A stretch of DNA of 64,000 nucleotides, from positions 1-64,000 of the IMG/VR virus record IMGVR_UViG_3300020418_000005, one strand, 5' to 3'. This DNA comes from a virus. The notes below the pieces were generated by a model. It made no database searches. It was not told the DNA's origin and was given only the letters and a program-made list of their open reading frames with translations. This document shows positions 11,973 to 51,946 of this stretch, in pieces. Position 1 is the stretch's first letter. Each line of letters starts with the position of its first letter. A program made the translations under genes and the position numbers.

Positions 11973-12284
11973 TTAGCAATTCCAAGCTCTTAGTGATTTG
12001 TTGATCCTACTATCAGGATCACTGGCAGTTTTCTTTGAAGTTAATTTCTTTTTCATTCCTTTCATTCTAGCACAAAAGGATGTCCGACGGGGATTTCCAA
12101 CCTTCTTGCTTGGTGCTTTAAGGTCAGATCCAGGATTTGCTCTTTCGTAAGACTTCCTTCCTTTCTCATTAAGTCCACCTTCTTTGTTCTTGCCAGCCTT
12201 CTTTGTCCAGGCTGCACCTTCTAAAATTCCGTTATCCTGCACATTGGCAGACTCAGCGAGTCTTTTAAATTCTTTGTATCTCAT
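11973..12284 (-). CDS. Basic protein, DUF6321-like; probable internal head protein
   Basis: GGLNEKGR, RRTSFCARM and SRINKSLRAWNC motifs. N-terminal MRYKEFKRLAE resembles the T4 capsid-targeting sequence. Confidence 0.75.
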   Translation of the reverse strand: MRYKEFKRLAESANVQDNGILEGAAWTKKAGKNKEGGLNEKGRKSYERANPGSDLKAPSKKVGNPRRTSFCARMKGMKKKLTSKKTASDPDSRINKSLRAWNC

Positions 12285-12308
12285 ATACCATGTCAGGGTC
12301 TATGCATT

Positions 12309-12315
12309 TATTTAT
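12309..12315 (-). promoter_or_regulatory. Late promoter ATAAATA
   Basis: Intergenic, about 25 nt upstream of the 12284 ATG. Confidence 0.6.
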
Positions 12316-12319
12316 GCAA

Positions 12320-12721
12320 CTATCTCTTGCCACCACCCATTTGTTTAAGCATTTTTTGTAATTCAGCAGTGCTACCAACGAACATAGCATTGTTAGTAAC
12401 ATTCTTAGGACCTTTTATTTCTTCATCAAGATCTTTCATTTTCTTATGTAAGTCTTGTAATTTCTCTGTCATGTCTGCAACATGTTTCATCGCCGCTACA
12501 GCAACTTCATATGCTCTAGGGTGACCACTTTCTTGTGCTACTTCCAATGCACCCTTCACCGCTTCTTGACCTTGGTCTATCAAAGAATATAATTCACCAC
12601 GAGTATATTCATAATCTTTTTGTTGATCATCTTCTTTTGATTTTACCTTTGGCAAGTTAGGTTTCTCAACATGTTCTACGTCCATGTTAAGAAGTTCCTC
12701 CATATTATCTTCTAGGTTCAT
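12320..12721 (-). CDS. g16: Terminase small subunit gp16
   Basis: DYEYTR, AQESGHPRAYEV and NNAMFVGSTAELQKML motifs. Confidence 0.95.
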   Translation of the reverse strand: MNLEDNMEELLNMDVEHVEKPNLPKVKSKEDDQQKDYEYTRGELYSLIDQGQEAVKGALEVAQESGHPRAYEVAVAAMKHVADMTEKLQDLHKKMKDLDEEIKGPKNVTNNAMFVGSTAELQKMLKQMGGGKR

Positions 12722-13518
12722 AAGAATTCAATCCCTTCATTAAATCCAAAGTCGTCACCAGCATCGACCAATGCATCATCTGCTGCATCAATGACACCAT
12801 CAGTATTGATATCAGTTTTTGCTTTGGGTGTATATGTTCTAGTGATAGCTCTACGACTAACTGCTGTATCACCAAGTGTTTCGTGTATGATTGCTTTCTT
12901 GATAACATCTGATGTGTTGTAAGGACCGTATAGATATGTCTTCATCTGGAAGTTAAGAGTGTAAACAATATATCTACGCTCGTAGAAACTATCATCCCAT
13001 GTATCCTCATATGATACATTGTTTAGAACAACAGCAATATCTTTCTTCTCATTCATATCAGGTATCATGTTGAGAGTAACACTGAATGATGGTTGGAAGT
13101 ATGGTAATATTTGCTCGGTGATTTGTAGGGCGTCGTCTTGTGACTTAGCAATTACGCCAAGTTCAAATGATAGGTTGTATGGTACAGGAACATACTGCAC
13201 TCTTACTTCACCACCATTGTTATTAATTATTGTTTTATACTTCTGAATAGGAGAAGTTTTACGGGTAGGATCGTAGTCAATGCTAGTCATTTCAAAGTAC
13301 AATCTTGGTAGAGTGATTGCTACTTTTCTATTGCTAGTATTTTCTTCTAGTCTTACAATAAATTTTTGTTTAGGACCGTATGCTAACGGTACTTTCATTT
13401 CTTCCAATACAGCACCAGTGCTTGGATCTGTACTCTTCATCGTAATATTATTGAAGAGTGTACCAAATGCTATTATGTTCTTACGAACTATCTGGTTGTA
13501 AAAGTGATTACCTAACAT
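12718..13518 (-). CDS. g15: Tail sheath stabiliser/terminator gp15
   Basis: FGTLFNNI, VPLAYGPKQKF, TLPRLYFE, PVPYN and EQILPYFQP motifs. Confidence 0.95.
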   Translation of the reverse strand: MLGNHFYNQIVRKNIIAFGTLFNNITMKSTDPSTGAVLEEMKVPLAYGPKQKFIVRLEENTSNRKVAITLPRLYFEMTSIDYDPTRKTSPIQKYKTIINNNGGEVRVQYVPVPYNLSFELGVIAKSQDDALQITEQILPYFQPSFSVTLNMIPDMNEKKDIAVVLNNVSYEDTWDDSFYERRYIVYTLNFQMKTYLYGPYNTSDVIKKAIIHETLGDTAVSRRAITRTYTPKAKTDINTDGVIDAADDALVDAGDDFGFNEGIEFL

Positions 13519-14408
13519 TATATGCTACCTGTAAAATTACCAAACTCACCGAATGGATTACGCTCTGACCAATCAACTATATTGTCAGCAGCATCTTCGA
13601 TTTGTCTATTTGCATCATACTCACTATTTGTATCCTGTAGTGTATCGAAGGTTGATACAACCCATACAGCACTACTGGTATTACCAGTAAGTGATTCGTT
13701 TGCTGCAAATGTTCCAGTTCTATTGATTACCTGTAGTATTCTTGTAGAACTATCCCATGACTTGACTTCTGCTGTTGTAGAAGTAGTACCACCAGTAACA
13801 GTCTCACCAGTAGTAAAGTCTCCTGTACCACCAACTCCCATTGTAAGAGCAATAGCAGTATCGAACAACTCTTCTATAGCATCTATCTCTGCAACACCAG
13901 TAGCAAGATCGTCTGAACCAACCTCGTATAGTTCTGCAGTAATTGCATAAAATTGAATCTTACCAAACTGGAAGAATGGTTCTTCCTTTCCGACATACTT
14001 AATTTCATACAAATCTTCTGTGAGAGGATAGTATAATAAATCCCCTTCATTAGGTCTACTAGGAACTGTGAGTTTTGCAGCCATACTATGTTCCGCTACT
14101 TCTTCATCCCATCTATTTGTAGACACACGAAAAATTATTTCGTCTGTAATACGTAAACCAAACTTACTTATAAATTCTGCATTGTCTCCAAAACCCATTA
14201 CATTTACAAGTAACATTTCAATTTGAAATTGATCTTGGAATTTAGTATATCTAACCTCGTCTAACGTGCCATCTGTTATAGCTGTTTTGGGTAGATAGTA
14301 TATGTCAGAACCAAAGAGTTTGATTTGCTCATCCACAAGATTCTGAACCAAAGTTTGTTCGCCACTGTGACCTTGGTGATAAGTTGGGAAGTAGGGACTT
14401 GTAGGCAT
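13518..14408 (-). CDS. g14: Neck protein gp14
   Basis: SKFGL, RPNEGDLLYYP, PFFQFGK and C-terminal NPFGE motifs. Confidence 0.93.
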   Translation of the reverse strand: MPTSPYFPTYHQGHSGEQTLVQNLVDEQIKLFGSDIYYLPKTAITDGTLDEVRYTKFQDQFQIEMLLVNVMGFGDNAEFISKFGLRITDEIIFRVSTNRWDEEVAEHSMAAKLTVPSRPNEGDLLYYPLTEDLYEIKYVGKEEPFFQFGKIQFYAITAELYEVGSDDLATGVAEIDAIEELFDTAIALTMGVGGTGDFTTGETVTGGTTSTTAEVKSWDSSTRILQVINRTGTFAANESLTGNTSSAVWVVSTFDTLQDTNSEYDANRQIEDAADNIVDWSERNPFGEFGNFTGSI

Positions 14409-14409
14409 T

Positions 14410-15222
14410 TTATCCGATCATATCCATTGGTGGTATAGCGTACTTACTGAGAACCTCACCTTCGATTTTCTCAATTTCTGCTAATGCGTCCATATAAAGT
14501 TCTCTACCATTAAGTGTTACACCGCCAGGTAATTGAACATTGTTATACTTGATCAAGTTCTGACCCCACTGTTTCTTCAACAATGAAGTAGCATATCTCT
14601 TTACAAATATATCATTATACATTTCGGTTGCATCATCTGGGTCTATCATACGATGAGCCTCTATCAACAGATTCTGTCCTTCTTGTAAGAAGTCCTTATC
14701 TATATCTAGATACAAACGATCACGACGCTGAGTATATCTAAACTGCTGGAATGAACCATTGTTTAAAACCATATCTAGAGTCTCTAGATATTGCTTGGTC
14801 ATATAGTAGTTTAAGATATCAAGAGATCCAAAGGCATACAAATCATTTAAGAATATTCTATATTCAATACCAAATAAGTTAGAACGAATAGAGTTACCTA
14901 CCATTCCAAATACCTTACTAATACCAGATACATGTGCTGGTATAGGTATAAAGTTTGTTGCTTCTTTCCAAGTGGTAGTTACACCAGCATCTACTTTAGT
15001 TGTATCAGTAGTTGCTGCAAGACGAGTTTTATCATCTGCAGTTATCTCGTGTACTAGATAACACCTCTCCATACCATTGTAACAATTCTCTTGAAAGAAC
15101 TGAAATGTGTCGTCAATTACATTGTTTACTTGCTCATCATCTACGTTAACTTGCAAGACAGGTTCACCTAATTGCCTCTTAGCATATGTAATCAATTCTG
15201 CTTTTGTACTTGGAGATGCCAT
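14410..15222 (-). CDS. g13: Neck protein gp13
   Basis: RQLGEPVLQVNV and KKQWGQNLIKYNNVQLPGGVTLNG motifs. Confidence 0.95.
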   Translation of the reverse strand: MASPSTKAELITYAKRQLGEPVLQVNVDDEQVNNVIDDTFQFFQENCYNGMERCYLVHEITADDKTRLAATTDTTKVDAGVTTTWKEATNFIPIPAHVSGISKVFGMVGNSIRSNLFGIEYRIFLNDLYAFGSLDILNYYMTKQYLETLDMVLNNGSFQQFRYTQRRDRLYLDIDKDFLQEGQNLLIEAHRMIDPDDATEMYNDIFVKRYATSLLKKQWGQNLIKYNNVQLPGGVTLNGRELYMDALAEIEKIEGEVLSKYAIPPMDMIG

Positions 15223-15246
15223 TACCCACTATAATCCCTTCATAGT

Positions 15247-15253
15247 TATTTAG
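15247..15253 (-). promoter_or_regulatory. Late promoter CTAAATA upstream of g13
   Basis: Contains the TAA stop of the upstream ORF; about 25 nt before the g13 ATG. Confidence 0.6.
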
Positions 15254-15450
15254 GAAGGATCAACGTTTGCGGGTGCTGCGTCAGGTGCTGGTGGTGTTTC
15301 TTGCTCTAAAAGACCTAGTGTTTCTAGTCCTCCTACAAGTTTTAATTTATATTCTTTTGCTTTTGCTAAATTCGTTTCTAACTCTGTTATCTGACTATCA
15401 GTCTTAGCAATTTGTTCTTCAAAGTTAGTTTTTAGTTGTGCTGGATCCAT
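15250..15450 (-). CDS. Small coiled-coil protein
   Basis: Heptad pattern plus a Pro/Ala tail; likely start is MDPAQL at 15450. Confidence 0.7.
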   Translation of the reverse strand: MDPAQLKTNFEEQIAKTDSQITELETNLAKAKEYKLKLVGGLETLGLLEQETPPAPDAAPANVDPS

Positions 15451-15455
15451 GGTTA

Positions 15456-15998
15456 TCAAGGTAAGAAATTAAAGTTTATTACGAATCGAGGTTTCTTTGT
15501 GGGTACGCTACTTGAATGATATCGTAGACCATCAAAGAAAACGCATCTACCTTTTACAGGAGATACTGTACTATTTATAGGGTATTCAGCAAGCGGTTCT
15601 CCGTACATTCTTTCGCTGAAATACGTGTCACCATCACTGTCTGATGCATAGTATAGACATACCAAATGTGGATCTGGTAAGTCAACATGCATAGAATCAT
15701 ACTCTTTTGTTCTCACACCTGGCGTCTGTAAAAAACATCTGCCACGTATGACTTTAGATATTGATATGCCTGTATTATAACATGCTTCAAATACTAATGG
15801 AAGAAACATTCCAGAGTATTTACTTGTAGAATTACCATTCAATATAAACATATGAGAGAAACCTACCAACTGACTCTCACCATCTTCACTAAGATTATCA
15901 TGATACACCCATCTAAAATCTGTATCATATCTCATAGTGCTTTCTAAAAGATTCTGATAGTTAGGATTGATGCAGTTGTCCTTAATAATGTTCTTCAT
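15456..15998 (-). CDS. 2OG-Fe(II) oxygenase
   Basis: HVD...H...R triad (MHVDLP, RYHSS, PRFVINF). Confidence 0.85.
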   Translation of the reverse strand: MKNIIKDNCINPNYQNLLESTMRYDTDFRWVYHDNLSEDGESQLVGFSHMFILNGNSTSKYSGMFLPLVFEACYNTGISISKVIRGRCFLQTPGVRTKEYDSMHVDLPDPHLVCLYYASDSDGDTYFSERMYGEPLAEYPINSTVSPVKGRCVFFDGLRYHSSSVPTKKPRFVINFNFLP

Positions 15999-16578
15999 CT
16001 ACACCCTCCACATTCCATATCAAGTTACCAGATACTGTTACCCTTTCTTTTTGTGTAGACTTAAAAGGATATACAGCATGTTTGGTTGTAGATGGAAACA
16101 TAAGTATTACACCGTTCCAAGTTTTATCTACTGGCAATACATCTGCTTCTAATTGAAACGCACCATTACTATTATGTGACTCTCTTTCTTCAGAACCATA
16201 TGGTATGTCTGTAAAAATTACAAAACTTACTATACCAGTGTGTGTATGTATAGGATTGTATTCATACTGTTGCTGGTAATTTACCCACAGGTTTCTCAGT
16301 CTTATAAAAGGAGTTACGTTTTTTGCTTCTTGAAAATCCCACGGGCATGTTTGATATACCTGTGACCACAACTGTGTAGATAGTCCAACAACATATTCTT
16401 CAAACTGTGGACTCCAATCAGATAGACTTGACTGTTGTTCTAATGCACCAGCAAGTTTATCATTGTAATTCCAAGTCTCTTCCTCCCTTCTTCTCTGTGT
16501 GTAAGAAAGTAATTCTTGATATAAATTTTGTGGCATTTTCTCTGATAGAAAAGAGAAACTATCTTGACTGTATATCAT
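15982..16578 (-). CDS. 2OG-Fe(II) oxygenase-like protein (HxH type)
   Basis: WVNYQ..YNPIHTH, FPSTTKHAVYPF and RVTVSGN motifs. Confidence 0.85.
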   Translation of the reverse strand: MIYSQDSFSFLSEKMPQNLYQELLSYTQRRREEETWNYNDKLAGALEQQSSLSDWSPQFEEYVVGLSTQLWSQVYQTCPWDFQEAKNVTPFIRLRNLWVNYQQQYEYNPIHTHTGIVSFVIFTDIPYGSEERESHNSNGAFQLEADVLPVDKTWNGVILMFPSTTKHAVYPFKSTQKERVTVSGNLIWNVEGVDEEHY

Positions 16579-17090
16579 GCGTATAAATCTGCACTTAAAC
16601 TATATCGTTTTTGATTTTGAATACCTTTGCCAGGTAAGTGTGGTAAGTTAGATGGAAAGATAAACCAAGTCAATTCTTTTTTAGGTAAAAAATATGGATC
16701 TCTTTTTGGCATAGGAAACATAGTAGTTCCAGACTCACCTAGTTTTATATACATTATACCAGATAATGTGAAAGGATTGTCTGGATTGTGTGAATGCATA
16801 TATGGTTCTATTGGATTATTATTCCAATCCACATACACCCATGAATTTATTTGGAAATCAAATATATCCATACCCCAATACCTAGAACAAGCATCATGAA
16901 ATGTCCATTTTAATTTTTTGATAATAGGTTCATCATACTCTAAGAAATCATCTTTACCATCAGTAAAGGTAAGTTTAGATACATGAGCCATGTTTTGAGT
17001 AAGAGAATCGTTTTCAATATTAGTATCAATAAACTCTATAAGTTTATCTGCGTCAATATCTACTGGATACTCTCTAATTCCTAATACCAT
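16575..17090 (-). CDS. 2OG-Fe(II) oxygenase-like protein (HxH type)
   Basis: MHSH, LSGIMY, IFPSNLPH and RYSLS motifs. Confidence 0.8.
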   Translation of the reverse strand: MVLGIREYPVDIDADKLIEFIDTNIENDSLTQNMAHVSKLTFTDGKDDFLEYDEPIIKKLKWTFHDACSRYWGMDIFDFQINSWVYVDWNNNPIEPYMHSHNPDNPFTLSGIMYIKLGESGTTMFPMPKRDPYFLPKKELTWFIFPSNLPHLPGKGIQNQKRYSLSADLYA

Positions 17091-17662
17091 TTTCTTGTAT
17101 TCTGTGCAATTATCTTATCGTGAATCTCAGGATCACAAAATGAGAAAGCAATAGTAGTTCTAATCTCATTACCTATTAGTGTGTTTGGTGGTTGTCCTTT
17201 ATGTAACCAGTTAGAAGGAATCAATGCACCTGTATTAGGTACGTATGGTGTGTGATGATATTCATCATCTGGTGTTTGACATACAAACTCACCACCCCAT
17301 TCTTGATCCCAATGTGGTTGATTAAAGTATATAAATGTCCAGACATTATGTTCTTCCCAGTCCTTATGAAACATTGTATTCTGTCCTGCTGTCTGTCCAT
17401 TAGCATGTATCTTACAGAGTTTGATATCTCTCCTAAGAAATTTCATTATCTTTAATCTAACTGTAGTAGCACACTTAGTAAATATCAAATCAGTTCTTAG
17501 TGGATGTTGCCATGATACTGGATCACCCTGTCCATAAGATGCATTATTAAATGTCCATGTAGCAAGTGAGTTCATAGATGGTGATCTACGATCAAAGTAA
17601 TCCCATAATGATATTCTCTCTTCTTGAGATAATACATTACGAATAACGTGAGGTTTATTCAT
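17081..17662 (-). CDS. 2OG-Fe(II) oxygenase
   Basis: NGQT..FHKD, WDQEWGGEF, WLHKG and RTTIAF motifs. Confidence 0.88.
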   Translation of the reverse strand: MNKPHVIRNVLSQEERISLWDYFDRRSPSMNSLATWTFNNASYGQGDPVSWQHPLRTDLIFTKCATTVRLKIMKFLRRDIKLCKIHANGQTAGQNTMFHKDWEEHNVWTFIYFNQPHWDQEWGGEFVCQTPDDEYHHTPYVPNTGALIPSNWLHKGQPPNTLIGNEIRTTIAFSFCDPEIHDKIIAQNTRKWY

Positions 17663-18192
17663 GCATCACCCCATATCTGAATTGTATATCTAAACTCAGG
17701 TGTATCATGTGCAACAGTAGTTACTAAGTGACTCTCACTACAGTCATTTAATACTAGCATATTTTGTTCTGGTAGAACTGCTCTGTAAACATCAGTTTTG
17801 TTTGGATCTTCATCTAAATTAAGATCAGCATGATCCATCCATACAAACCAACCACCAGCATTTGGATGCCAATGTTCATTTAGATATAGTGTTGCACCAA
17901 ACAAATGATGAGTGTCAGAGTGTACTCCAATACCAGCACCTGGTTGCCATACATTATATCTACATGTCAACTTTTTAAACTCTGGTGCGTGTGGTTTTAA
18001 ATGTCTTGATATTTCATCACTGAATACTTTAGGAATAGCAGTAGCAATAGTTGATCCATGAACACCTTGTCTTAAAAATGGTTTCCATGCAAAGTTACTA
18101 GAAGACCAGCAGTCAGTATTCAACTTAGATCTAAAGTCGTCTACACATGCGTCAAGTAATGATTTAGGTAAAAAGTTCTTTATAATTTTCAT
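17659..18192 (-). CDS. 2OG-Fe(II) oxygenase (prolyl-4-hydroxylase-like)
   Basis: VHSD, ATLYLNEHW...GG, SHLVT and RYTIQ motifs; start revised to MKIIKN (ATGA overlap). Confidence 0.88.
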   Translation of the reverse strand: MKIIKNFLPKSLLDACVDDFRSKLNTDCWSSSNFAWKPFLRQGVHGSTIATAIPKVFSDEISRHLKPHAPEFKKLTCRYNVWQPGAGIGVHSDTHHLFGATLYLNEHWHPNAGGWFVWMDHADLNLDEDPNKTDVYRAVLPEQNMLVLNDCSESHLVTTVAHDTPEFRYTIQIWGDA

Positions 18193-18752
18193 ACCCACCA
18201 AAGCCATCCAGTTATAATATATTTTTCATGCTCCTCTGATATCACACCTCTATGTTTATGTGTTAATCCAGCAGGAAAAATTAATGTTTTTCCTTTCTTT
18301 GCCTCTACAGTATATTCCTGATAAAAGAATTCAGTTCCTCCATTAGGAACATCATTTAGATATGTGATGTATACAAATGCTCTATCACACCCATCAGATC
18401 CTGATGCATCCACATGCCAAGTATAAAAACCATCACCTGGTTTATAGTATTGAATCTGTGGTAGTCTTTGCATTACAAATTCTTGATTGTGAATAGTCAA
18501 AGAGTTCAAGTAATTATCAATAAATCCATTTAACTCTTCTTGGTATAAATCAAATTTATAATCACTAGGTTCTCCTAGAGGACCTGCATCTTCAATAAAA
18601 AAATCTCTACTCTTTTTTACCTCAGGCATGACACTCCCACCACCTACACGACCAGCATAAGTCAAATCTATTTTATCGGCGTCTTTGTATAGATCTATAA
18701 GACGATCACATATACTAAGATCACTCAATGTATATTCTTTTATAAATCTCAT
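18189..18752 (-). CDS. 2OG-Fe(II) oxygenase (P4Hc-like)
   Basis: WHVD, YLNDVPNGGTEF, THKHRG and KYIITGW motifs. Confidence 0.9.
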   Translation of the reverse strand: MRFIKEYTLSDLSICDRLIDLYKDADKIDLTYAGRVGGGSVMPEVKKSRDFFIEDAGPLGEPSDYKFDLYQEELNGFIDNYLNSLTIHNQEFVMQRLPQIQYYKPGDGFYTWHVDASGSDGCDRAFVYITYLNDVPNGGTEFFYQEYTVEAKKGKTLIFPAGLTHKHRGVISEEHEKYIITGWLWWV

Positions 18753-19315
18753 TTATATGCAGGTCCTTGTGTCCACCCAACAAGAGAATGTCTAACACCT
18801 TTAGTCACTGGTTTAACTCTGTGTGGAGTATCAGCATGAAATATTATAACATCTTTCTTCTTTAATTGTACCACATTTTTTTCAGTTGTCTGTATCTCAA
18901 ATTCACCACCTTCAAAATCATCATTTAACATAACTGTAAAACTTATTTTACGTATCCTATTGTTAGGTCTTTTACCTTTTGTCCAACCCATCTCATCACA
19001 ATGCCAATCATAGAAATCACCTACATCATATTTTGTACGTTGTAGAGGTTCCATAAAATTTACATCTAAATTCCAATCACATTTGGTATTAGCAAAATGC
19101 ACAAGACCATCCATCATTGCATAGACTTCATCATTGTCTATCCAGCATAACTTTGAACTTCTATCTTTATTATGTTGTGCTTGATATTTGTTACCATCCC
19201 ATTGATCTGTCTTACCTGATTCATAATCTTGATATGGTTTTATTGCTTTTTCTAATTGTGGAAAGAAATCATCATCAAGATGGACTACCATGTATTGATG
19301 TTTAAATGAATTCAT
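18749..19315 (-). CDS. 2OG-Fe(II) oxygenase (PKHD/YbiX-like)
   Basis: FYDWHCD, RKISF, FEGGEF and HRVKPVTKGVRHSLVGW motifs; start revised to MNSFKH (ATGA overlap). Confidence 0.9.
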   Translation of the reverse strand: MNSFKHQYMVVHLDDDFFPQLEKAIKPYQDYESGKTDQWDGNKYQAQHNKDRSSKLCWIDNDEVYAMMDGLVHFANTKCDWNLDVNFMEPLQRTKYDVGDFYDWHCDEMGWTKGKRPNNRIRKISFTVMLNDDFEGGEFEIQTTEKNVVQLKKKDVIIFHADTPHRVKPVTKGVRHSLVGWTQGPAYK

Positions 19316-20994
19316 TTTTGTAATACCATAACATGTATACCATTCCACCAACCATTAGGATCTTCTGGAACTTTAGTTAGTATTTTTCTCTCAAATAATA
19401 AATTGAGTTTATGTTCTTTTATCCAGAACTCAGATGATTGCACAACACCCATAAAGTTTGCATCGTCAACAACAAGAATAAACTTGTCTGCAAATGCAGG
19501 AATTAAGAATGTAAGATTATCATACTGAGCTTGTGGATCGTGGTCTGCATCATAGAAAATTACATTAGGTTGTTTGTGTAAATCTCTAGGAGTTAGATCT
19601 TGAATTGTCTTAGCACAAAAATATTGTTTCTCTTGTAGTCCTGCCCAAAATATTTTCTTAGGATCTTCATATCCTTCTACTTCTACTTCATCTCTAAAAG
19701 GTGATATCTCTTTCTCAGAATAATTATCTATAGCAAATGATTCTACATCTCTATTCATAGTAGCAGCATAAAATGTGCTACCAGCATGAACTCCTAACTC
19801 CATGTAGATTGCATCAGGTTTAGATAATAAATTATTTAAAAAATGTCTTACTATATTAGATGACAGACCTTCATACTTATATCCTTCCTCTATAAAATTA
19901 CTTTCTCTCCTTGCTGCCTTATCAATAGATTCTAATACTAATTTAATATCGTCATCAAAATGTCTGTCGTTCTTTTTCATTCTAGATTGAACAACAGAAT
20001 CACAATAATTACAATCCCAACAGTCAAACTTACATGTCTTTATTTTTTCTCGCCATATATCAATTGGTCTCTCTTCTAAAGAAACGTCTTCAATATATTC
20101 ATTAAACTGTGGATGTAAAAGTTCTTCATTAGTTTTCCATCTATTAATAATAGACATACTTTCATAAAGACGCATAGCATTTTCTCTACCATGCATCTTG
20201 AATACATCTATACCAAGATCAATAAATTCTTCCCAGTCTTTCCTCCATGGAGGTATAGTTGCTGCTTTCAATGATGCTGCAGGATCTTTCTCATCCCATG
20301 TAGAACAAGATACTCTACTGATACTATCGTTAAAATATTGTGGGTCATCTTTCTCTCTTACCATATTATAATGGTAATGCTCTGGCATGATCGGGCATCC
20401 ACCCCAACACCACTCATTAGAAAGTAATGATATCTTGACAGGTTTACCTATAGATGCACAGTATTCTTTTGCTTTCTTAATTTTAAGTAGAGAATCTCTA
20501 TCACGCATAAGATCTCTGTCTAGATTGATATAATAGAATCCTGCCTTTGCAAGATTTACAATTTCATTTGGTCTAGTAACTTCTCTGAGTATAGTATTCT
20601 TTACTTTTAATTCTGGAAACTCTCTCTGTATCTGCCCAGTCAACATCCATGTTGTATGTGGTAGGGTAACTATACGAACACCATTGTCATACAAGAATCT
20701 AAAATTCTCAATAAAAATATCCAAGTTCTCTTGTGTAGGAGGAACTTGGATATTATTAAATGTTGCAGACAAAGGTATCCCAGTCTCCTGTGATACAAAC
20801 AAAGCATTTAAAGTTGTTTCTCTGATGTCACCATCAATTACGTCACCCATTGCATCTTGCGTAAAGGGTGGCATACGACAGGTAAAATAGATATCGTAGA
20901 TATATTCCTTATGTTCTTGTAGAAAAGGAATGAATTGGTTTACTACAAAATCCTCAGGTAATTTAGTATTAAGAGGTAGCGAGAAACTTGCCAT
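19312..20994 (-). CDS. Fusion of a peptidase-U32-family (putative Fe-S) domain and a class I SAM-dependent methyltransferase
   Basis: N-terminal part has INLDRD, NEWCWGGCP, VSC, DVFKMHGRE and CKFDCWDCNYC. C-terminal part has YMELGVHAGST, IFYDADH and VVDDAN (Methyltransf_24-like). Confidence 0.75.
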   Translation of the reverse strand: MASFSLPLNTKLPEDFVVNQFIPFLQEHKEYIYDIYFTCRMPPFTQDAMGDVIDGDIRETTLNALFVSQETGIPLSATFNNIQVPPTQENLDIFIENFRFLYDNGVRIVTLPHTTWMLTGQIQREFPELKVKNTILREVTRPNEIVNLAKAGFYYINLDRDLMRDRDSLLKIKKAKEYCASIGKPVKISLLSNEWCWGGCPIMPEHYHYNMVREKDDPQYFNDSISRVSCSTWDEKDPAASLKAATIPPWRKDWEEFIDLGIDVFKMHGRENAMRLYESMSIINRWKTNEELLHPQFNEYIEDVSLEERPIDIWREKIKTCKFDCWDCNYCDSVVQSRMKKNDRHFDDDIKLVLESIDKAARRESNFIEEGYKYEGLSSNIVRHFLNNLLSKPDAIYMELGVHAGSTFYAATMNRDVESFAIDNYSEKEISPFRDEVEVEGYEDPKKIFWAGLQEKQYFCAKTIQDLTPRDLHKQPNVIFYDADHDPQAQYDNLTFLIPAFADKFILVVDDANFMGVVQSSEFWIKEHKLNLLFERKILTKVPEDPNGWWNGIHVMVLQK

Positions 20995-21217
20995 AATCTA
21001 CGATCACTGCTTCCATATATAAATGTTCTTCACCAGGTTTATCTACTAAGATACCCTTGTGTGTCTCTGCTAGTTGCTCCAACTTTGATTGATCCAATTG
21101 TGGATATGTAATAGTGTCGCCACTTGTATCCCCTAATTCATACCTTTGCCATATAGCATGATGAATTACAGGCAATAGATCAAGATGTCTACTTGTTGGA
21201 TTAAAAAATCTATCCAT
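20969..21217 (-). CDS. Hypothetical protein (about 82 aa)
   Basis: Overlaps both neighbours; likely start is MDRFFNP. Confidence 0.65.
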   Translation of the reverse strand: MDRFFNPTSRHLDLLPVIHHAIWQRYELGDTSGDTITYPQLDQSKLEQLAETHKGILVDKPGEEHLYMEAVIVDYGKFLATS

Positions 21218-22046
21218 TTTCCCCTTGTAATTTGTATTGGTTTTCACCCTGTCCACTATATTTATGTTCTAACAGTTTAGGCATTACTATACCATCCTGT
21301 GCTAACTGTGCTTGTAACTTCGGTGCGATCATTTTATTTAGTTTGTCAATACCACCACCAATCATACCAGAATACTGAACAGCAACACCAAGTGTTTCTA
21401 CCTGATCTTCCTCTGGCATATCCATGATTGTAGTCATGTTACCAGAACCAATTCTACCATAAGAAATAATATCCATTGCTGCTTGTTTGCCCATACGAGC
21501 AATCCAATACATTCTTACTTCCTGATGATTCTCTTGACAATAATACTCTAAAGGATGCTCGTCGTCAACATATTTGTCAACAACATTTAAGAAATACTTT
21601 AACTCTAGTTCAGATTGCCTGAGTTTCCTTTTCCAAATACCAATATCATAATCATTTTTTTCCATATCAATTTGCATCAACTCTCTATCAAGTTCGTCAG
21701 GAAGCAATGGCATGTCCCTGTTCAATCTTTTTCTAAGAATCTCTGCCTTTCTAAGACTATTTCTATTCTCCATGTATGCATGATATCTAGTTTCTAGTTC
21801 CATCAATGCTTGACGGACTTTTCTCCATGGAGTTAATTGAGGGTCAGCAACAAAGTGCTCACACTCATACTCTGTCATACCACTATCAAAACGCATAGAT
21901 GCAGACAAGACATCAAAGTCTTTTTTAGTGAGTGCGAACTCGTCTACAAATGACTTTGATAAATGTATTTCGTTTGTGTCTGAACTTATTATATTTTTTA
22001 CGTCTGCAATTATATCTGAAAAATTAGCGTCAGAATTTAAAGACAT
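21210..22046 (-). CDS. Hypothetical helical/coiled-coil protein
   Basis: 278 aa with TPWRKVRQALMELETR and YWIARMGKQAAMDI..GRIGSGN segments; no function recognised. Confidence 0.8.
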   Translation of the reverse strand: MSLNSDANFSDIIADVKNIISSDTNEIHLSKSFVDEFALTKKDFDVLSASMRFDSGMTEYECEHFVADPQLTPWRKVRQALMELETRYHAYMENRNSLRKAEILRKRLNRDMPLLPDELDRELMQIDMEKNDYDIGIWKRKLRQSELELKYFLNVVDKYVDDEHPLEYYCQENHQEVRMYWIARMGKQAAMDIISYGRIGSGNMTTIMDMPEEDQVETLGVAVQYSGMIGGGIDKLNKMIAPKLQAQLAQDGIVMPKLLEHKYSGQGENQYKLQGENG

Positions 22047-22839
22047 AGGGTTCTACCTCATACTCTGGTTTGCGATCCCAGTCAGTATCAGATTTTGTTC
22101 TCCCCATCTCAATCGCTTGCTTTTGAGGCAACATGATACCAATGTGATCTTCATATAATATATTTAGGTCCCAAATTTCAGTGCAACTTTCAAATTTCTT
22201 TATTAGGATTTGATATTCTACTAGCATTGTAGATAGTTTATCTTCCCATGCTTCTGCATTTGCAAGTATCTTATTTGAAAGAGTGTCTTTGTCAATATGT
22301 CTTTCAGCAGATAGGTAGTCTAAGAAAGGAGTTTTACTACCACCTAGTCCTTTATTTTCTAACCATTCTCTTGCTTCATGCTTTTGGATTTCCCAAGATG
22401 CTACTTCTAGATCTGTAGTGTTCTTAAGATTCTTAAGACGTGTGTTGTATTCATCTTCAATAATTTCTTTTGCAAAATATATCATGAAGTCTACAACTTC
22501 TTTCTTAATTTCTGGTGTAAGTTCGATAGGAACTTTTAAAACTGGGTTAGCAGGAGTCCATGCATAACCAGCTGAATCAACCGATGCAGCAACCTTACCA
22601 AACGGTCTAATTTCTGAGAAGAAGTTTGATCCGTTATATGCTTGTGCTTTTGTAACTTCTAAGTATTTGTGTTCCCATTCTTTAGATATAGTTTGGAAAA
22701 CTGTTTCACTGACCTCTACACATGAGAAGTGCATCAACGAAAACATTTCGCTGTAGTGCAGTCTGGTATCCCCAGTAGCAGTCATGTTTACAAACTGTTC
22801 TGGATTGATTTCTTTTTCGTTGACGATTAAGTATCTCAT
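22030..22839 (-). CDS. Putative tail-fibre assembly/chaperone protein
   Basis: SWEIQKHEAREWL...TPFLDYLSAERHIDKDTLSNKILANA resembles tail-fibre-assembly helical domains; follows the putative tip protein. Confidence 0.55.
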   Translation of the reverse strand: MRYLIVNEKEINPEQFVNMTATGDTRLHYSEMFSLMHFSCVEVSETVFQTISKEWEHKYLEVTKAQAYNGSNFFSEIRPFGKVAASVDSAGYAWTPANPVLKVPIELTPEIKKEVVDFMIYFAKEIIEDEYNTRLKNLKNTTDLEVASWEIQKHEAREWLENKGLGGSKTPFLDYLSAERHIDKDTLSNKILANAEAWEDKLSTMLVEYQILIKKFESCTEIWDLNILYEDHIGIMLPQKQAIEMGRTKSDTDWDRKPEYEVEPYVFKF

Positions 22840-24125
22840 TATTGTGCTCGTTTAGCAGTTACAGAAGCGGATGCTGAACAGCAACCACCAGAAGATGTTC
22901 CATAATGTCCTTTTGGTCTAGTAGCAGCTGGCATATTTGTTTCAACGTCAGTGGAGTAATCCCACTTAGTTGTATGGTTGTTCTGCTGACCATCATATTG
23001 TCCCATCATGTATCCTTTGTCTTGACCCATCATCATATTTTCTTCACCATAAGCACGAACTTTAGTTCCGTTCTTAAGACCAGCTCCAGATGATCCACTG
23101 TATTTAGTCCAAGGTGATGTAACATTGTTACCAGTTCCACAGTAGAAGTGACCATACTTAGAAGGAAGTGGTTTACAAACTCCGTCAGGAGACATGTTAG
23201 ATGACCAACCAGCCCAACTATCGTTGGAATGATTGACGTAGTATCTACTACCACGGAAGGATGCCCAAGATCTATTCTCATCACCACAAGATGCAGTGTG
23301 GTCAGAACCAGAAGGTGAGTTACCTACCTGATACATGATCTCAGATGAGTAGTGAAGTTTACCTACAGCAGAGTTACCTCCACCTAAGTTGTAACCAAAC
23401 TGTTGTACCTGTGCAGTAGCAGTTGAGTTTCTATCTCGGTTAACTGGCATATTCCAACCACCAACAGTTGTATATCCCATAACTCCTCTAGGATCGTCTC
23501 CTTCCCAACCATATGGTGAGGTTGGAGAGTAAGTACCACCGCCTGGGTTTGATCCAGTAGTACCAAACATTCGTCTCATACCTGTGTGTAGGTTGATCGA
23601 GTCTGTAAAGTTAGAAGATCCCGTGAAAGAGTTAACGCAACCATGACCATACCCGAAGTAATCACTCCATGTACAGTCAGCGTAAGTAAGTGCTCTAGTT
23701 AGTTGTTCTCCACAATAGAAAGTAATATCATTTGCATGCCATGTTTTATTAACCGTTCTCCAAGGATTAGATCCTTTATACCCCGCCACCAGATAACCGT
23801 GTGTTATCAAACTTCTATATCTGAATCCTGTAAGAGGAGCAGATGCAACAGTCTGACCAGGATACGCCCAGAAAACACCGTTGCTTCCATCAGATACTAG
23901 ATAAGAACCTCTAGTTACATCAGCTGGTTCTGGAATACCACCACCAACTTCATCCCAGTCTGAACCATTCCAAATCTGTGCCTTACCTTCAGATGTATTG
24001 AAGATTAATTGACCTACGTTTGGTGATGCTGGTCTATTCGAGTTATTAAAAGATGGCAGTTTAAGACCTTGCGTCGTTAAACTCGCATTACCTGTTAAAA
24101 CTGTTCCAACTGTTAACTGAGACAT
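22839..24125 (-). CDS. Putative virion adhesin: fibre-type N-terminal module plus a repeat (beta-propeller/kelch-like) domain
   Basis: RPASPNVGQLIFNTSEGKAQIWNGSDW fibre module, then recurrent GYxxGG-like blades rich in G/S/Y/W. Confidence 0.6.
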   Translation of the reverse strand: MSQLTVGTVLTGNASLTTQGLKLPSFNNSNRPASPNVGQLIFNTSEGKAQIWNGSDWDEVGGGIPEPADVTRGSYLVSDGSNGVFWAYPGQTVASAPLTGFRYRSLITHGYLVAGYKGSNPWRTVNKTWHANDITFYCGEQLTRALTYADCTWSDYFGYGHGCVNSFTGSSNFTDSINLHTGMRRMFGTTGSNPGGGTYSPTSPYGWEGDDPRGVMGYTTVGGWNMPVNRDRNSTATAQVQQFGYNLGGGNSAVGKLHYSSEIMYQVGNSPSGSDHTASCGDENRSWASFRGSRYYVNHSNDSWAGWSSNMSPDGVCKPLPSKYGHFYCGTGNNVTSPWTKYSGSSGAGLKNGTKVRAYGEENMMMGQDKGYMMGQYDGQQNNHTTKWDYSTDVETNMPAATRPKGHYGTSSGGCCSASASVTAKRAQ

Positions 24126-24149
24126 GGTTACACTACTTTCCTATAAGTT

Positions 24150-24156
24150 TATTTAT
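24150..24156 (-). promoter_or_regulatory. Late promoter ATAAATA heading the adhesin-U32-oxygenase operon
   Basis: Lies at the only sizeable intergenic gap between 15250 and 25261; about 25 nt before the 24125 ATG. Confidence 0.6.
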
Positions 24157-24506
24157 GGTTTGGGATTGTTTTCTTTAACTTCTTTCACTTTCTCAAACCA
24201 CTTGGATGTTTCTTTGCCTGGTATAATACCAGCATCCATGTCATGATATAGCATATCCAATTGTTCTGCAAAATCTGGATACTCTTGTTTGCGAGCAAGA
24301 TCGTATGCAGTTGGTTCACGAACTATTTTTTGTAATTCATTTGTTGCTCGGTTGAATTCATAGTCAGCCTCGCCTAAACCTTTATCTATTTCTTCTAGAT
24401 ACTGCACCCACATGAAATCTTCATGTACCTCAAACTGGTCGTCTGATCCACCTTTCACGAACTGAAGTACAGTTCCGTTATGTTTATTTACAAGTACTTG
24501 ATACAT
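24153..24506 (-). CDS. Putative tail-fibre chaperone/assembly protein
   Basis: RKQEYPDFAEQLDMLYHD...WFEKVKEVKENNPKP is typical of genes following marine phage fibre genes; TAATG coupling to the upstream gene. Confidence 0.65.
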   Translation of the reverse strand: MYQVLVNKHNGTVLQFVKGGSDDQFEVHEDFMWVQYLEEIDKGLGEADYEFNRATNELQKIVREPTAYDLARKQEYPDFAEQLDMLYHDMDAGIIPGKETSKWFEKVKEVKENNPKP

Positions 24507-25261
24507 TAGGTATACTCCCATACGATTACGCAACCAGCACCACCGTTGCCATTATTATGTGCATATCCATTTTGTGAATAATATCCATAAGCACCACCAG
24601 AACCCCATTGTCCATGTGTGCTCTCTGCTCCATCGCTAGAGTTATGATGGTTAGATCCTGCCTTATGCCAAAATGTAGATCCACTACAACCTTCTCTATT
24701 AGAACCGTGTGACATTTCGCCAGGTCCGCCAGGTAGGTTTATATCTCCACCAGAGGCATCTCCACCTCTTCCTCCTTCATATGGGTTATCAGTGTAACCA
24801 CCTTGTCCACCAGAAGCAGAGCAATAGTTACCAAAAGATGAAGTTCCTCCAGATCCTCCTCTACCACCATTACGAGCATAACCACCGCCACCACCATATG
24901 TGTAGTTAACGCTGTTTACACCAGAAACATCAATGTATTTAATAGCAGTAGCTCCACCGCCACCACCAGCACCACGATAGTTGTTGTCATTACAACGACA
25001 ACCTCCACCACCACCAGTGACGTAAACTAATACATGATTACAACCAGATGGTTTTGTCCATGTACCAGATCCACCAGAGGTTGATCTATCTGCCCAGTTT
25101 CCATTCTGTGATGTATATGTTTTGATGCCAATTAAAGCACCAGGAGTTGTCATTTCAGAATAACCACTTCCATTCCATATTCTCAAATTATCGTTTTGCA
25201 GATCCATTATATTAACACCAGCGGTGTTTTGGATCTGGTCTACTTTTAAAATACCTGCCAT
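24506..25261 (-). CDS. Glycine-rich tail-fibre tip/adhesin protein
   Basis: MAGILKVDQIQ N-terminus, WTKPSG..VLVYVTGGGGG, GGTSSFG and GGAGCVIVWEY Gly-rich domain. Confidence 0.75.
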   Translation of the reverse strand: MAGILKVDQIQNTAGVNIMDLQNDNLRIWNGSGYSEMTTPGALIGIKTYTSQNGNWADRSTSGGSGTWTKPSGCNHVLVYVTGGGGGCRCNDNNYRGAGGGGGATAIKYIDVSGVNSVNYTYGGGGGYARNGGRGGSGGTSSFGNYCSASGGQGGYTDNPYEGGRGGDASGGDINLPGGPGEMSHGSNREGCSGSTFWHKAGSNHHNSSDGAESTHGQWGSGGAYGYYSQNGYAHNNGNGGAGCVIVWEYT

Positions 25262-25273
25262 CTTTAGATTCCT

Positions 25274-28200
25274 TTATACAATAGCCCAGTTACCACCACT
25301 ATTTATAGTGACTGTATAACCGTTAGCAATGGTGATAGGTCCTGCACTAACACAGTTAATGTTTGCAGGAATTGTTATATTCTCAGCAACAGTATTACTG
25401 TTTGACTTGAATATACCATAAGAGTCGATCCACTGTTTAACGCCATTAGCATATAGGAAACCGTTCTCTATGTTAGTATCTCCAGAAATATGTAACTGAT
25501 ATGTTGGATTAGTTCTATTAATTCCAACTCTAGATAATCTGTAAATATCTAGATTGTTAGATGCTTCTGTCCATCTAGATGTTACGAACTCAGAGTTGTT
25601 CTGGAACAACTGTCCGTTAATGTTCATATCACCTTGAACATTTAGATAGTAACTTCTAGTTGTGTTTGATTCAGAGTCAACACCAGATATTGCTGATGTA
25701 TTAATAGCAACTCTTCTGTCACCTCTAACATAAATTGCAGGAGTGCTATCCCAGTTCTGACCACCATTGTTTGTAGATGGTGTTATCTCAAACGCATTGT
25801 TATGACCAATCTGGTTACCAATTCTAAAGTTTCTTTGTGAGTTAGAACCTAAGAAGTATATTGGTGCACCAGAGTTATCATTAGCAGAATCTATATATGC
25901 ACCAGTAGTAAATCTTGCATTACCACCAACATCAAGAGTGTAACTTGGATTGTTATTATTAACACCAAGTCTTCTTTCAGCAACGATATCTCCAAATACT
26001 TTAAATCCAGTGAGTGCTTCTGATCCAAACAATTCCCATCCATCGTTCCATGGAGTACCAGAAATAGATCCATCTTGATGCTTATACTGGAATGTTCCTT
26101 GTTGAGTGTATCCTCCTTGATGATCACTAAATTTAATCTTAGCACCAACACCGTTACTACTGGTGCGAATTAGGATACCATCATTACCCTGTACGTGAAG
26201 TGTTGATGCTGGATTTGTAGTATTGATACCAACCTCATAAGCAGATACATCAACAAACAAAGCACCAGAAACATTAAGATCATTATTAACGTTAGTGAAA
26301 TTATTGAGGTTTGTAATACCAGCGACTGTAAGTCCAGAAGTACCACCAGTGATGTTCAATGAACCAGTCATTGTATCACCAGTCTTCAATACGTTAAGTG
26401 ATGCAGAACCAACTAAGTTTGCTGTAATTGTTCCAGCAGAGAAGTTACCAGATCCATCACGTTGTACAGCATAATTTGGTGTGTTGGAACTTGAGAATTG
26501 TATGTTACCTTGGTTCCAAACAACTTGGTTCTTAATTGTAAATCCGTCAGCATTTACAACATCAACGTTAAGAGAACCAGATCCTGCAGATGCATTACCA
26601 CCTGATGCTTCTATCTTAGCGTTGTAACTAGCAGCGAGCTGAGATGAGTTGAATAATATTCTAGGTGTAGTTGCGTTACCATCTTTTCTACCTAGTTGTA
26701 ACTGTCCAACACCACCATCACTATGTAAGTTACAAACTTCTAGTGTGTTACCATCTTCAATAGTAAAGTCATCAAACTCTACTCTGTTAGATGCAGTACC
26801 AACTGTTAGAGCACCAGCAAAATTACCAGATGTAAGTCTACCAATTAAGATTGTAAAATCATTGAAGTTATCATTAACATCATCATTTGTGATAACGTTG
26901 TCAATAACAAAACTACCAACACCCTGTGCGTTAGCATTGTAAAGGTTTACAGATGGGTTATTAGGATCGCCAGGTATGAATGGTGCTGTATTTAATATTT
27001 GACCTGAGACATATATTCTAAACTTAGGATCACCAGCAAATGCTTTGATCGTGACCTTATCTCTAAACTTAGTCTCACTAATAAATCTAGGAAGTCTATT
27101 ATCAGATAATGTTCCGTAGTTAATGTTTAATGCATTCTGATACCAAGCACCTTGTCTGTTGTCTAGTTTATCAGCATCCATTCCAGAATCAACACCATCA
27201 CTTAATGATGTCCATACCTTCGCCCATGAATTCCATGTGCTGACTCCATTACCAGAACCACGAAGATACATGTTGTCATCATTAGCAAATGCAAGTTGTC
27301 TTACACCACCAAACGATGCGTCAAAACCAGAGGCACCATTTCTTATAGTTAGAACTAAGTGCTTAGTAGATGTTCCAGTTCCAATACCTGTGTTAACAGA
27401 AGGATATGCAGTTCCTAATCCATTAGAACTGTTGAATACTGTGTTAGAAATAACACCCTCAACGAAACTGTTTGGATTTGGGTTAGAGGTTGGGTTGTTA
27501 GTACCAGTTTGTAATCTAATTGTGTTAGCAGAAGATCCACTAATATCAATACCATATATACCACCTAGTCTATCTTGTGGAACTTGTCCAGCGAATAAGT
27601 GGTTTGCATTGGTATAGTAATTACCTTGCTGTCCATCTAATAAGTCAGCATCCAATCCACTATCAGGACCAGTCTTAAGTTCAACAGATCCGTTTCCTGC
27701 TTGACCAATATTAAATTGTGATTTTTTATATCTGGAAACACCAATTGTTCCGTAGAGGTCAGCAGAAATTGTTAGGTCAGTAACCCTGTTAATATCAAGA
27801 GAAACGTTTGCATACTGTCTATTGACTGTACTTACTTTTGCATTTAATACTAAACTAGATCCACCACCAATTGATGATGGTGCAACTGTAATTGAGAAGT
27901 CAGCATTATATCCAGTACCACCATCAGTAACAGTAAGTTCTGTAACTGTATTACCAGAAACAACAATATTTGCTTTGAGTCCTGTACCAGTACCACCCTG
28001 TAAAGGTTGGTCAAAATATTGTCCGTTTGTAAATCCTGATCCGCCGTTTGCAATGATAACATCATCAACGAATCCACCCTGTGTAAAGGTAGACTCAAAT
28101 GTCATTGGTGATTCACCACGCTCAAACTCAATGATTGTTCCTAATGGAATATTTTGAGTAACTGGATTGTTCAATGCTATGGTTGTTAATCCAGCGGCAG

Positions 28201-51926: not shown

Positions 51927-51946
51927 TATTTATACGTTTATTTATA
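51927..51946 (-). promoter_or_regulatory. Two tandem perfect late promoters (TATAAATA x2) upstream of g8
   Basis: TATTTATA at 51927-51934 and 51939-51946, within an 11-bp direct repeat TTATTTATACG. Confidence 0.7.

Follow-up and report, generated by a model that had tools for sequence, protein, structure and literature searches.

A late cassette of T4-like cyanomyoviruses linking a Kelch-type propeller gene to a U32-like/methyltransferase fusion, with tip proteins as candidate targets

Introduction

Cyanomyoviruses are among the most abundant viruses of the sea, and we know of no substrate for their 2-oxoglutarate (2OG) oxygenases and halogenases over 15 years or more. What do such enzymes act on when they are encoded in one run of genes with a putative adhesin? 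We addressed this question in a 64-kb stretch of DNA (IMG/VR record IMGVR_UViG_3300020418_000005, positions 1 to 64,000; hereafter the window), taken out of a 74.8-kb contig with an estimated completeness of 39% that originates from an uncultured T4-like cyanomyovirus. A sequence-only reading of the window had proposed that thirteen genes, from a propeller-like adhesin through a U32-methyltransferase fusion and seven oxygenases to a 69-amino-acid (aa) peptide, form one late system that tailors a virion protein. As judged from homology searches, the conserved unit is smaller: it consists of the genes for p428, p269, p278, a small variable protein (p82) and p560, with near-perfect co-occurrence in about 123 cyanophage records. 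Our preferred answer, which we offer tentatively and rate somewhat short of probable, is that this unit is a late-expressed, exchangeable 'tip cassette' of T4-like cyanomyoviruses whose enzymes tailor its own propeller or distal fibre proteins.

The conserved gene unit

Twelve genes follow one another on the minus strand from position 24125 to 15456, each junction overlapping by 1-26 nucleotides (nt), which confirms the open reading frames (ORFs), their order and the near-abutting or overlapping junctions described earlier from the letters. The chain of genes runs on without a real break at either side of this run. The conserved unit comes first:

p428, 22839..24125, minus strand: 428 aa, phrog_1417, six-bladed Kelch-type propeller by model
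p269, 22030..22839, minus strand: 269 aa, phrog_1604, no known family, predicted propeller partner
p278, 21210..22046, minus strand: 278 aa, phrog_1409, no known family
p82/95, 20969..21256, minus strand: small ORF starting at ATG 21217 or GTG 21256, no known family
p560, 19312..20994, minus strand: 560 aa, phrog_1458, U32-like barrel plus Methyltransf_24
p560 U32-like domain, residues 1-345, window 19945-20994, minus strand: TIM barrel with 7 invariant Cys
p560 methyltransferase domain, residues about 350-560, window 19315-19944, minus strand: Methyltransf_24, class I

Across the 50,697 phage records searched, p560 was found in 126, i.e., in 123 cyanophages and in three Ralstonia jumbo-phage records that hold the N-domain only. 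p278 was found in 123 records with an organism breakdown equal to that of p560 (77/38/8), full-length p428 in 121, and p269, at lower sensitivity, in 99. The proposed linkage of the 428, 269, 278 and 560-aa genes is thereby borne out (121, 99, 123 and 123 cyanophage records, respectively), and the order p428-p269-p278-(p82)-p560 is held down to about 25% identity (80 IMG/VR loci). The small p82/95 is poorly conserved and missing from many relatives. Orthologues of p428, p269, p278 and p560 occur in the same order as T4-GC 351-354 (P-SSM4 orf32-35, PHM2_098-101 and Syn19_043-046), which carry 'sericin-like' or hypothetical annotations only (Sullivan 2010); the P-SSM4 copies had been described in 2005 as 'prion-like' and 'archaeal protease' transient genes (PMC1079782).

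The p560 fusion protein and an unlikely nucleic-acid target

The N-terminal domain of p560 (345 residues) belongs to a family of its own, for which a search of 1.84 billion representatives gave 301 matches with E no higher than 0.001. Stand-alone proteins of 330-430 aa are common among these homologues, and every homologue of traceable source is viral. Its structural model (predicted local distance difference test score, pLDDT, 93) has the U32 protein Mk0906 (PDB 5d88) as best structural match, at the top in both Foldseek and VIA. The VIA match has a Z of 16.6 and a root-mean-square deviation (rmsd) of 3.2 over 226 of 247 aa, and lies 4 Z units above the other TIM barrels (Z 12.7 or less). In this respect p560 resembles the U32 family (RlhA, TrhP, UbiU/UbiV and Mk0906), and it likewise has invariant cysteines after the sixth strand region. 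A profile of E. coli UbiU, UbiV and TrhP gave a weak in-register match (probability 46%). PDB sequence searches with p560 and with p428, single or profile, returned nothing informative.

The differences from the family are equally clear. The Pfam U32 model (PF01136) did not match p560 at E up to 10, nor any of its homologues (0 of 59), and a six-frame search of the record with this model found nothing while control genomes matched. Seven cysteines are invariant across the 59 N-domain homologues (C196-X3-C200-X29-C230 and C321-X3-C325-X2-C328-X2-C331), but their spacing, CX3CX29C plus CX3CX2CX2C, fails the pattern CX6CX15CX3/4C, the four cysteines through which U32 proteins bind a 4Fe-4S cluster (PMC6747719). 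By its model, the N-domain folds like a U32 enzyme, yet the Pfam model of that family leaves it outside. For the C-terminal domain, Methyltransf_24 matched 15 of 15 family members (best E 8e-8), the window's own copy scoring 25.9 bits against a cut-off of 26.3, and the alignment has an ELGxxxGST motif and an invariant DDAN. The earlier designation 'U32-methyltransferase fusion' therefore stands with regard to the U32-like fold and the methyltransferase, and fails with regard to the Pfam U32 model and the cysteine pattern. Known pathways of the U32 family methylate after hydroxylation, and p560 likewise joins a methyltransferase to its U32-like domain; the fusion as such, and its setting among tail-fibre genes, distinguish it from the family.

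One candidate target of such a protein is nucleic acid. p560 would then act like TrhP plus TrmR, or like RlhA, making first a 5-hydroxy- and then a 5-methoxy-pyrimidine in phage or host tRNA, in rRNA or in phage DNA. In Bacillus, TrmR O-methylates ho5U. The only characterised U32 reactions on macromolecules yield ho5U34 in tRNA and ho5C2501 in rRNA (PMC6599085, PMC5727448), which favours this explanation. On the other side, the p560 domain fails the Pfam U32 model and differs in its cysteine pattern, no RNA-binding domain was found in p560 by Pfam, and the gene is timed late and linked to tip genes, not to tRNA or replication genes. We regard a nucleic-acid target as very unlikely.

The p428 propeller and its predicted partner

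Residues about 105-422 of p428 form a six-bladed Kelch-type beta-propeller in the structural model (pLDDT 78). VIA aligned it with the Kelch domain of KLHL17 (6hrl) at a Z of 30.4 and an rmsd of 2.4 over 271 of 287 aa, and with five Kelch domains at Z 25-30, so that the propeller-like adhesin suspected from the sequence is supported as a six-bladed Kelch-type propeller by model. Neither Pfam Kelch nor any other Pfam family matched p428 at E up to 10. Residues 1-74 are an N-terminal module common to cyanophage proteins of phrog_2415, phrog_1325 and phrog_7459, and an N-terminal module of the p428 type also occurs in cyanophage proteins encoded at the corresponding place in other genomes. Relatives of p428 span about 300 to 730 aa, some of them with ILEI or Laminin_G_3 lectin-type modules, and such variation in length and modules is as expected for an exchangeable distal adhesin. 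At its C-terminus (window 22839-22890) the protein ends in a conserved tail with the consensus KGHYGQSSGxCxSAAAxVT, which holds one or two cysteines.

For p269 and p278 there was no Pfam match, and PDB sequence and profile searches were uninformative; in the protein atlas p278 had no usable match and p269 had one weak lead (HI1402_helical, 0.89). Complex prediction for p428 with p269 gave an ipSAE of 0.69 against 0.00 for the best of 3 controls. Of 80 solved complexes, 58 score at least this high, as do 2 of 110 mismatched pairs. The partner's pLDDT was at least 75, contact agreement between runs was at least 0%, and one of the three runs scored 0.00. The predicted interface falls on the invariant residues of the propeller, and p269 is predicted to bind this conserved propeller face.

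A late-type promoter motif and expression

The sequence-only reading had assigned the run to late expression from an ATAAATA motif. Three copies of the motif lie in or next to the run:

ATAAATA late-promoter-like motif (CATAAATA), 24150..24156, minus strand: 24 nt before the p428 ATG, overlapping the stop codon of a 126-aa ORF
Internal ATAAATA, 21259..21265, minus strand: within the end of p278 and upstream of the 82-aa gene, in 19 of 27 non-redundant loci
TATAAATA/ATAAATA motif, 15572..15578, minus strand: within ox7 and before p69, in 22 of 24 loci at most 150 nt upstream of the orthologue

In the test for a T4-type late promoter, a TATAAATA-like box was present in the near upstream region of p428 as CATAAATA. 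Among 26 non-redundant loci, 24 have the motif 22-51 nt upstream of the p428 orthologue start, the background rate being 1 per 3044 nt, and it is kept even where the proteins are at only 24-28% identity. It was absent upstream of the p269, p278 and p560 starts (0 of 40, 0 of 42 and 0 of 47 loci). The P-HM2 orthologues PHM2_098-101 have been classed as Late, 098 in cluster E and 099-101 in cluster D (PMC5082946, suppl. file 3), and with the conserved motif this supports the late timing. The extra copies before the 82-aa and 69-aa genes bear on the claim of a single operon. Sigma-70 and terminator signals were not found above shuffled expectation. The whole window has 12 copies of ATAAATA on the minus strand, where all of the sizeable genes lie, and none on the plus strand. 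The copies are mostly 10-60 nt upstream of gene starts, with a double copy at 51927-51945.

Contigs from seawater RNA libraries (4 metatranscriptome runs from 2 studies) span all of 12000-26000 and bridge p560 to p428, ox2 to p560 and g13 to ox6. Because they are contigs without strand or 5' ends, and DNA carry-over is possible, we read them as presence only. The contigs of three runs part from the window at 24179 with loose ends, and in the fourth run they stop at 24166, just upstream of the motif. Among close relatives p428 keeps 95-99% identity, while the upstream neighbours range over 50-99%, with the 126-aa protein down to about 50%. The steadiness of p428, the divergence of its 126-aa neighbour and the contig ends at 24166-24179 together mark the promoter region as a mosaic, or recombination, boundary. 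RNA-library depth is lower at 24142-24608, which coincides with strain divergence, and we draw no inference from it.

The seven oxygenases and the neck gene

Downstream of p560, seven ORFs of 171-200 aa lie in tandem at 15456-19351, followed by p69:

ox1, 18749..19351, minus strand: 2OG-FeII_Oxy_3, Pfam 57.1 bits, H117xD...H...R, PKHD/prolyl-hydroxylase branch
ox2, 18189..18752, minus strand: 2OG-FeII_Oxy_3, Pfam 46.5 bits
ox3, 17659..18207, minus strand: 2OG-Fe(II) oxygenase, Pfam 30.7 bits, motif scan
ox4, 17081..17662, minus strand: probable 2OG-Fe(II) oxygenase, 24.8 bits against a cut-off of 27, H99xD...H154...R
ox5, 16575..17090, minus strand: probable 2OG-Fe(II) oxygenase of the HxH type, phrog_81 at E 2e-8
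ox6, 15982..16578, minus strand: 2OG-FeII_Oxy_5 of the HxH type, Pfam 40.7 bits
ox7, 15456..15998, minus strand: probable 2OG-Fe(II) oxygenase, 18.8 bits, below the Pfam cut-off, H104xD...H161...R
p69, 15250..15459, minus strand: 69 aa, small helical protein, phrog_580

Four of the seven (ox1, ox2, ox3 and ox6) score above the Pfam cut-off and two (ox4 and ox7) below it, and ox5 is supported by phrog_81 and by an hhalign probability of 75 to the Oxy_5 cluster only. A motif scan found a candidate HxD/H...H iron triad with a distal R/K in all seven (HxH in ox5 and ox6), and BLASTP found similarity in two pairs only. The claim of seven divergent 2OG-Fe(II) oxygenases is supported, with the candidate triad in every member and sequences that are mostly unlike each other. 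The nearest proteins to ox1 are PKHD-type hydroxylases (PiuC, E 2.4e-7) and, weakly, prolyl hydroxylases, and ox7 falls into one cluster with these two-domain-alike genes ox1 and ox2. We considered collagen-like repeats as what a prolyl hydroxylase might act on and rejected the idea, as no run of at least 5 G-X-Y occurs in any of the 42 window proteins. No Trp halogenase (PF04820) was found in the 74.8-kb record, which is 39% complete.

Tandem unrelated dioxygenases with halogenases have been known in cyanophages since 2010, and were interpreted there as metabolite synthesis (PMC2938197). The array in the window resembles the Syn9-type array described there, in which the 2OG dioxygenases are likewise distantly related, assembled rather than duplicated, and placed just behind the fibre genes. 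It differs from Syn9 in that its record lacks a halogenase (PF04820) and in that it is headed by the propeller/U32-methyltransferase cassette; the proposal for Syn9 concerns metabolites and not the tailoring of virions (PMC2938197). A second parallel, also from Iyer et al. 2010, is found in bacterial operons of beta-hydroxylase-type dioxygenases, where oxygenases also lie beside a fibre-like (tail-collar/collagen-like) proposed substrate. Those operons carry sulfotransferases, and the window proteins lack the collagen-like repeat.

The last gene of the proposed thirteen does not belong with the others. p69 precedes g13 in nearly all relatives with a detectable orthologue, whether or not oxygenases are present, and since it travels with g13 regardless of them it is part of the neck module rather than of the cassette.

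Recurrence and exchange of the cassette in other phages

A lineage of uncultured viruses (loci L158-L161) has 2-3 tandem propellers, a p278-like and a p269-like gene in swapped order, a radical SAM gene, a U32-like gene and a separate Methyltransf_24 gene. Behind these (e.g., L160 1117-9662) come genes for a protein of 290 aa and for a DUF401 permease-like protein. The U32-like and Methyltransf_24 domains are adjacent genes here, and thus a counterpart of the cyanophage fusion. In Ralstonia phage RP12 (L087 6335-9056), ORF140 (p278-like, hidden Markov model E 5.5e-25), ORF139 (U32-like) and ORF138 (DUF401/CitMHS-type) stand in a row. Homologues of p278 adjoin the U32-like gene in RP12 and in L158-L160, and with the equal record counts of p278 and p560 this makes p278 the gene that accompanies the U32-like gene most reliably. 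RP12 ORF143, a small collagen-repeat protein, is encoded 2 kb upstream of the p278-like and U32-like genes.

In other, non-cyanophage T4-like phages (64 loci) the U32-like gene stands alone and encodes about 410 aa. The order, conserved in L097 (2463-11975) and 28 similar loci with contigs of up to 354 kb, is a Peptidase_S74 fibre, three Gly_rich_2 genes, a 140-aa gene, the U32-like gene, a Trp halogenase (28 of 29) and neck/gp15. An oxygenase follows the U32-like gene in 16 of 29, and it belongs to the ox1/ox2/ox7 subfamily (hhalign probability 99.5%). The 64 loci are related to each other and therefore count as roughly one observation. Profiles of p278, p269 and p82 did not match the 140, 245 and 325-aa neighbours of these stand-alone genes.

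The closest view of exchange comes from P-HM1 and P-HM2, two cultured phages of one species with common flanks (T4-GC 513, 514 and 517-519). In P-HM2 (L090 4333-8725), the space between these flanks holds the genes for the propeller, for 099 and 100 and for the U32-methyltransferase, together with ORFs 102 and 103. P-HM1 (L162 6001-7977) instead encodes a 325-aa protein whose N-terminus is that of the propeller protein, along with a 130-aa protein and a PhyH-type dioxygenase. Each alternative tip comes with its own oxidative enzyme. The coupling of the enzymes to a receptor-binding-type gene, as the sequence-only reading had it, finds support in this swap and in its recurrence in other lineages.

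Proposed role of the cassette

We propose that the U32-like domain of p560 would bind an Fe-S cluster and hydroxylate a C-H position, as RlhA, TrhP and UbiU/V do, that the fused methyltransferase would then O-methylate the new hydroxyl, and that the 2OG oxygenases would contribute further hydroxylations. These modifications would take place inside the cell while virions are being assembled, most likely on the propeller of the cassette, on nearby distal fibre proteins or on a group that such proteins carry, with p269 and p278 as putative assembly or presentation factors. In its most specific form, with p560 hydroxylating and O-methylating a side chain of the propeller or a fibre and the 2OG oxygenases oxidising it further, the proposal is an unlikely one. 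What the late propeller/U32-like cassette, the interleaved enzymes and the cassette swaps do provide is a candidate substrate: the co-inherited tip proteins are a concrete and testable one for the oxygenases and halogenases of cyanomyoviruses, and the cultured pair P-HM1/P-HM2 is on hand for testing it. If the specific form is true, a U32-type Fe-S enzyme would for the first time have a protein as its substrate, and this would be the first case of a phage that tailors its own receptor-binding proteins enzymatically through exchangeable tip-plus-enzyme cassettes. A protein target would widen the chemistry of the U32 family and add a new layer to the ways in which phages vary host recognition.

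Several results weigh against this proposal, and they begin with the contents of the fibre-to-neck slot. Among complete p278-to-g13 slots (n=40), 33 hold 1-7 oxygenase-cluster genes and 7 of 40 hold none, and the oxygenases, apparently intact in the window, are a lineage-variable add-on. P-SSM4, Syn19 and S-RIM12 continue after the cassette with denV or small genes and have no oxygenase array, and the phages of T4-GC 351-354 have denV or other genes where the window has its array. In Syn9 and Sf-CH11, which lack the cassette, this slot is occupied by halogenases and oxygenase arrays. In favour of the proposal, several loci have their oxygenases between p278 and p560, and L053 and L063 add one or two Trp halogenases at that place. 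The single thirteen-gene system put forward earlier is therefore reduced to its conserved part, 428-269-278-(82)-560, with a variable set of 0-7 oxygenases and a neck gene at its end. In the 40 slot loci there are also 26 ORFs for a DUF6445 protein of about 220 aa (L053 8657-9322, L066 11694-12404), which are not counted as oxygenases because their hhalign probability to 2OG oxygenases is 0.2-5%.

The slot may simply be a permissive insertion site, and the propeller cassette, the U32-methyltransferase and the oxygenases would then be accessory genes that act independently, on unrelated targets, and have no more than their transcription in common. The variable number and position of the oxygenases, the other enzyme sets in Syn9 and Sf-CH11, the mosaic nature of the region and the description of the P-SSM4 copies as transient genes (Sullivan 2005, PMC1079782) all fit such a hot-spot. 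We nevertheless consider it quite unlikely: p278 and p560 are each found in 123 cyanophage records with equal organism and host breakdown, the propeller/p278/p269/U32-like/methyltransferase set recurs in a second lineage in a different gene order, and distant phages have an oxygenase of the same subfamily behind their U32-like gene.

A further set of results concerns the kind of target. RP12 keeps the p278-like and U32-like genes and has no detectable propeller, and a DUF401 permease-like gene lies beside its U32-like gene and two genes downstream of that in L160. Both the absence of the propeller and the permease-like neighbour favour a small molecule. The enzymes, with halogenases and radical SAM in relatives, would then make or alter a metabolite that resembles an amino acid or a quinone, and the link to the fibres would be one of timing or position. 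Such a pathway has precedents in ubiquinone synthesis, where hydroxylation of the quinone ring by UbiU/V is followed by O-methylation (PMC6747719), and in the Syn9 array, whose 10 dioxygenases and 2 halogenases were taken by Iyer et al. 2010 (PMC2938197) for secondary-metabolite synthesis. It is harder to reconcile with the near-perfect co-occurrence of cassette and propeller and with their being swapped together; no metabolite synthetase or scaffold gene was seen in the window, and late expression would leave a metabolite little time to aid replication. A metabolite as target is, in our assessment, improbable, though as a rival it has to be taken seriously; if it were the target, the cassette would mark a widespread and so far undescribed viral pathway.

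The literature adds two points against the tailoring of tip proteins. T4-GC 351-354 carry no 'structural' flag (Sullivan 2010), the presence of the cassette in the three virion-proteome phages not being established, and for the characterised U32 enzymes the substrates are in all cases RNA or quinones and never proteins (PMC6599085, PMC5727448, PMC6747719). Of all the points against, most weight falls on the missing propeller of RP12, the recurring permease-like neighbour and the lack of a known protein substrate for U32 enzymes. The presence of cassette proteins in the virion, and their modification, are predictions that the sequences suggest. Within the earlier claim that a virion protein is tailored, the late timing, the linkage of four genes and the coupling to the tip have held up; the fixed set of thirteen genes has not, and RP12, without a detectable propeller, speaks against the tailoring itself. 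New here are the conserved late motif, the co-occurrence counts, the split-gene lineage with radical SAM, the RP12 core of p278-like, U32-like and permease-like genes, the predicted p428-p269 pair and the P-HM1/P-HM2 swap.

Flanking genes

The placement of the run between fibre genes and g13 was confirmed. On the 3' side of the oxygenases and p69 lie g13 (head-tail adaptor, phrog_211), g14 (T4 neck protein) and g15 (tail sheath stabiliser). The 5' side holds four giant ORFs of fibre type, with lengths of 1833 to 3663 aa, and two smaller genes:

251-aa Gly_rich_2 fibre-type protein, 24506-25261, minus strand: upstream neighbour
126-aa protein, 24153-24533, minus strand: upstream neighbour

To judge from their alignments, these two neighbours are a separate mosaic module. 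The giant ORFs (3457, 1833, 2701 and 3663 aa) have no collagen-like repeats and occupy most of window 25274-62933.

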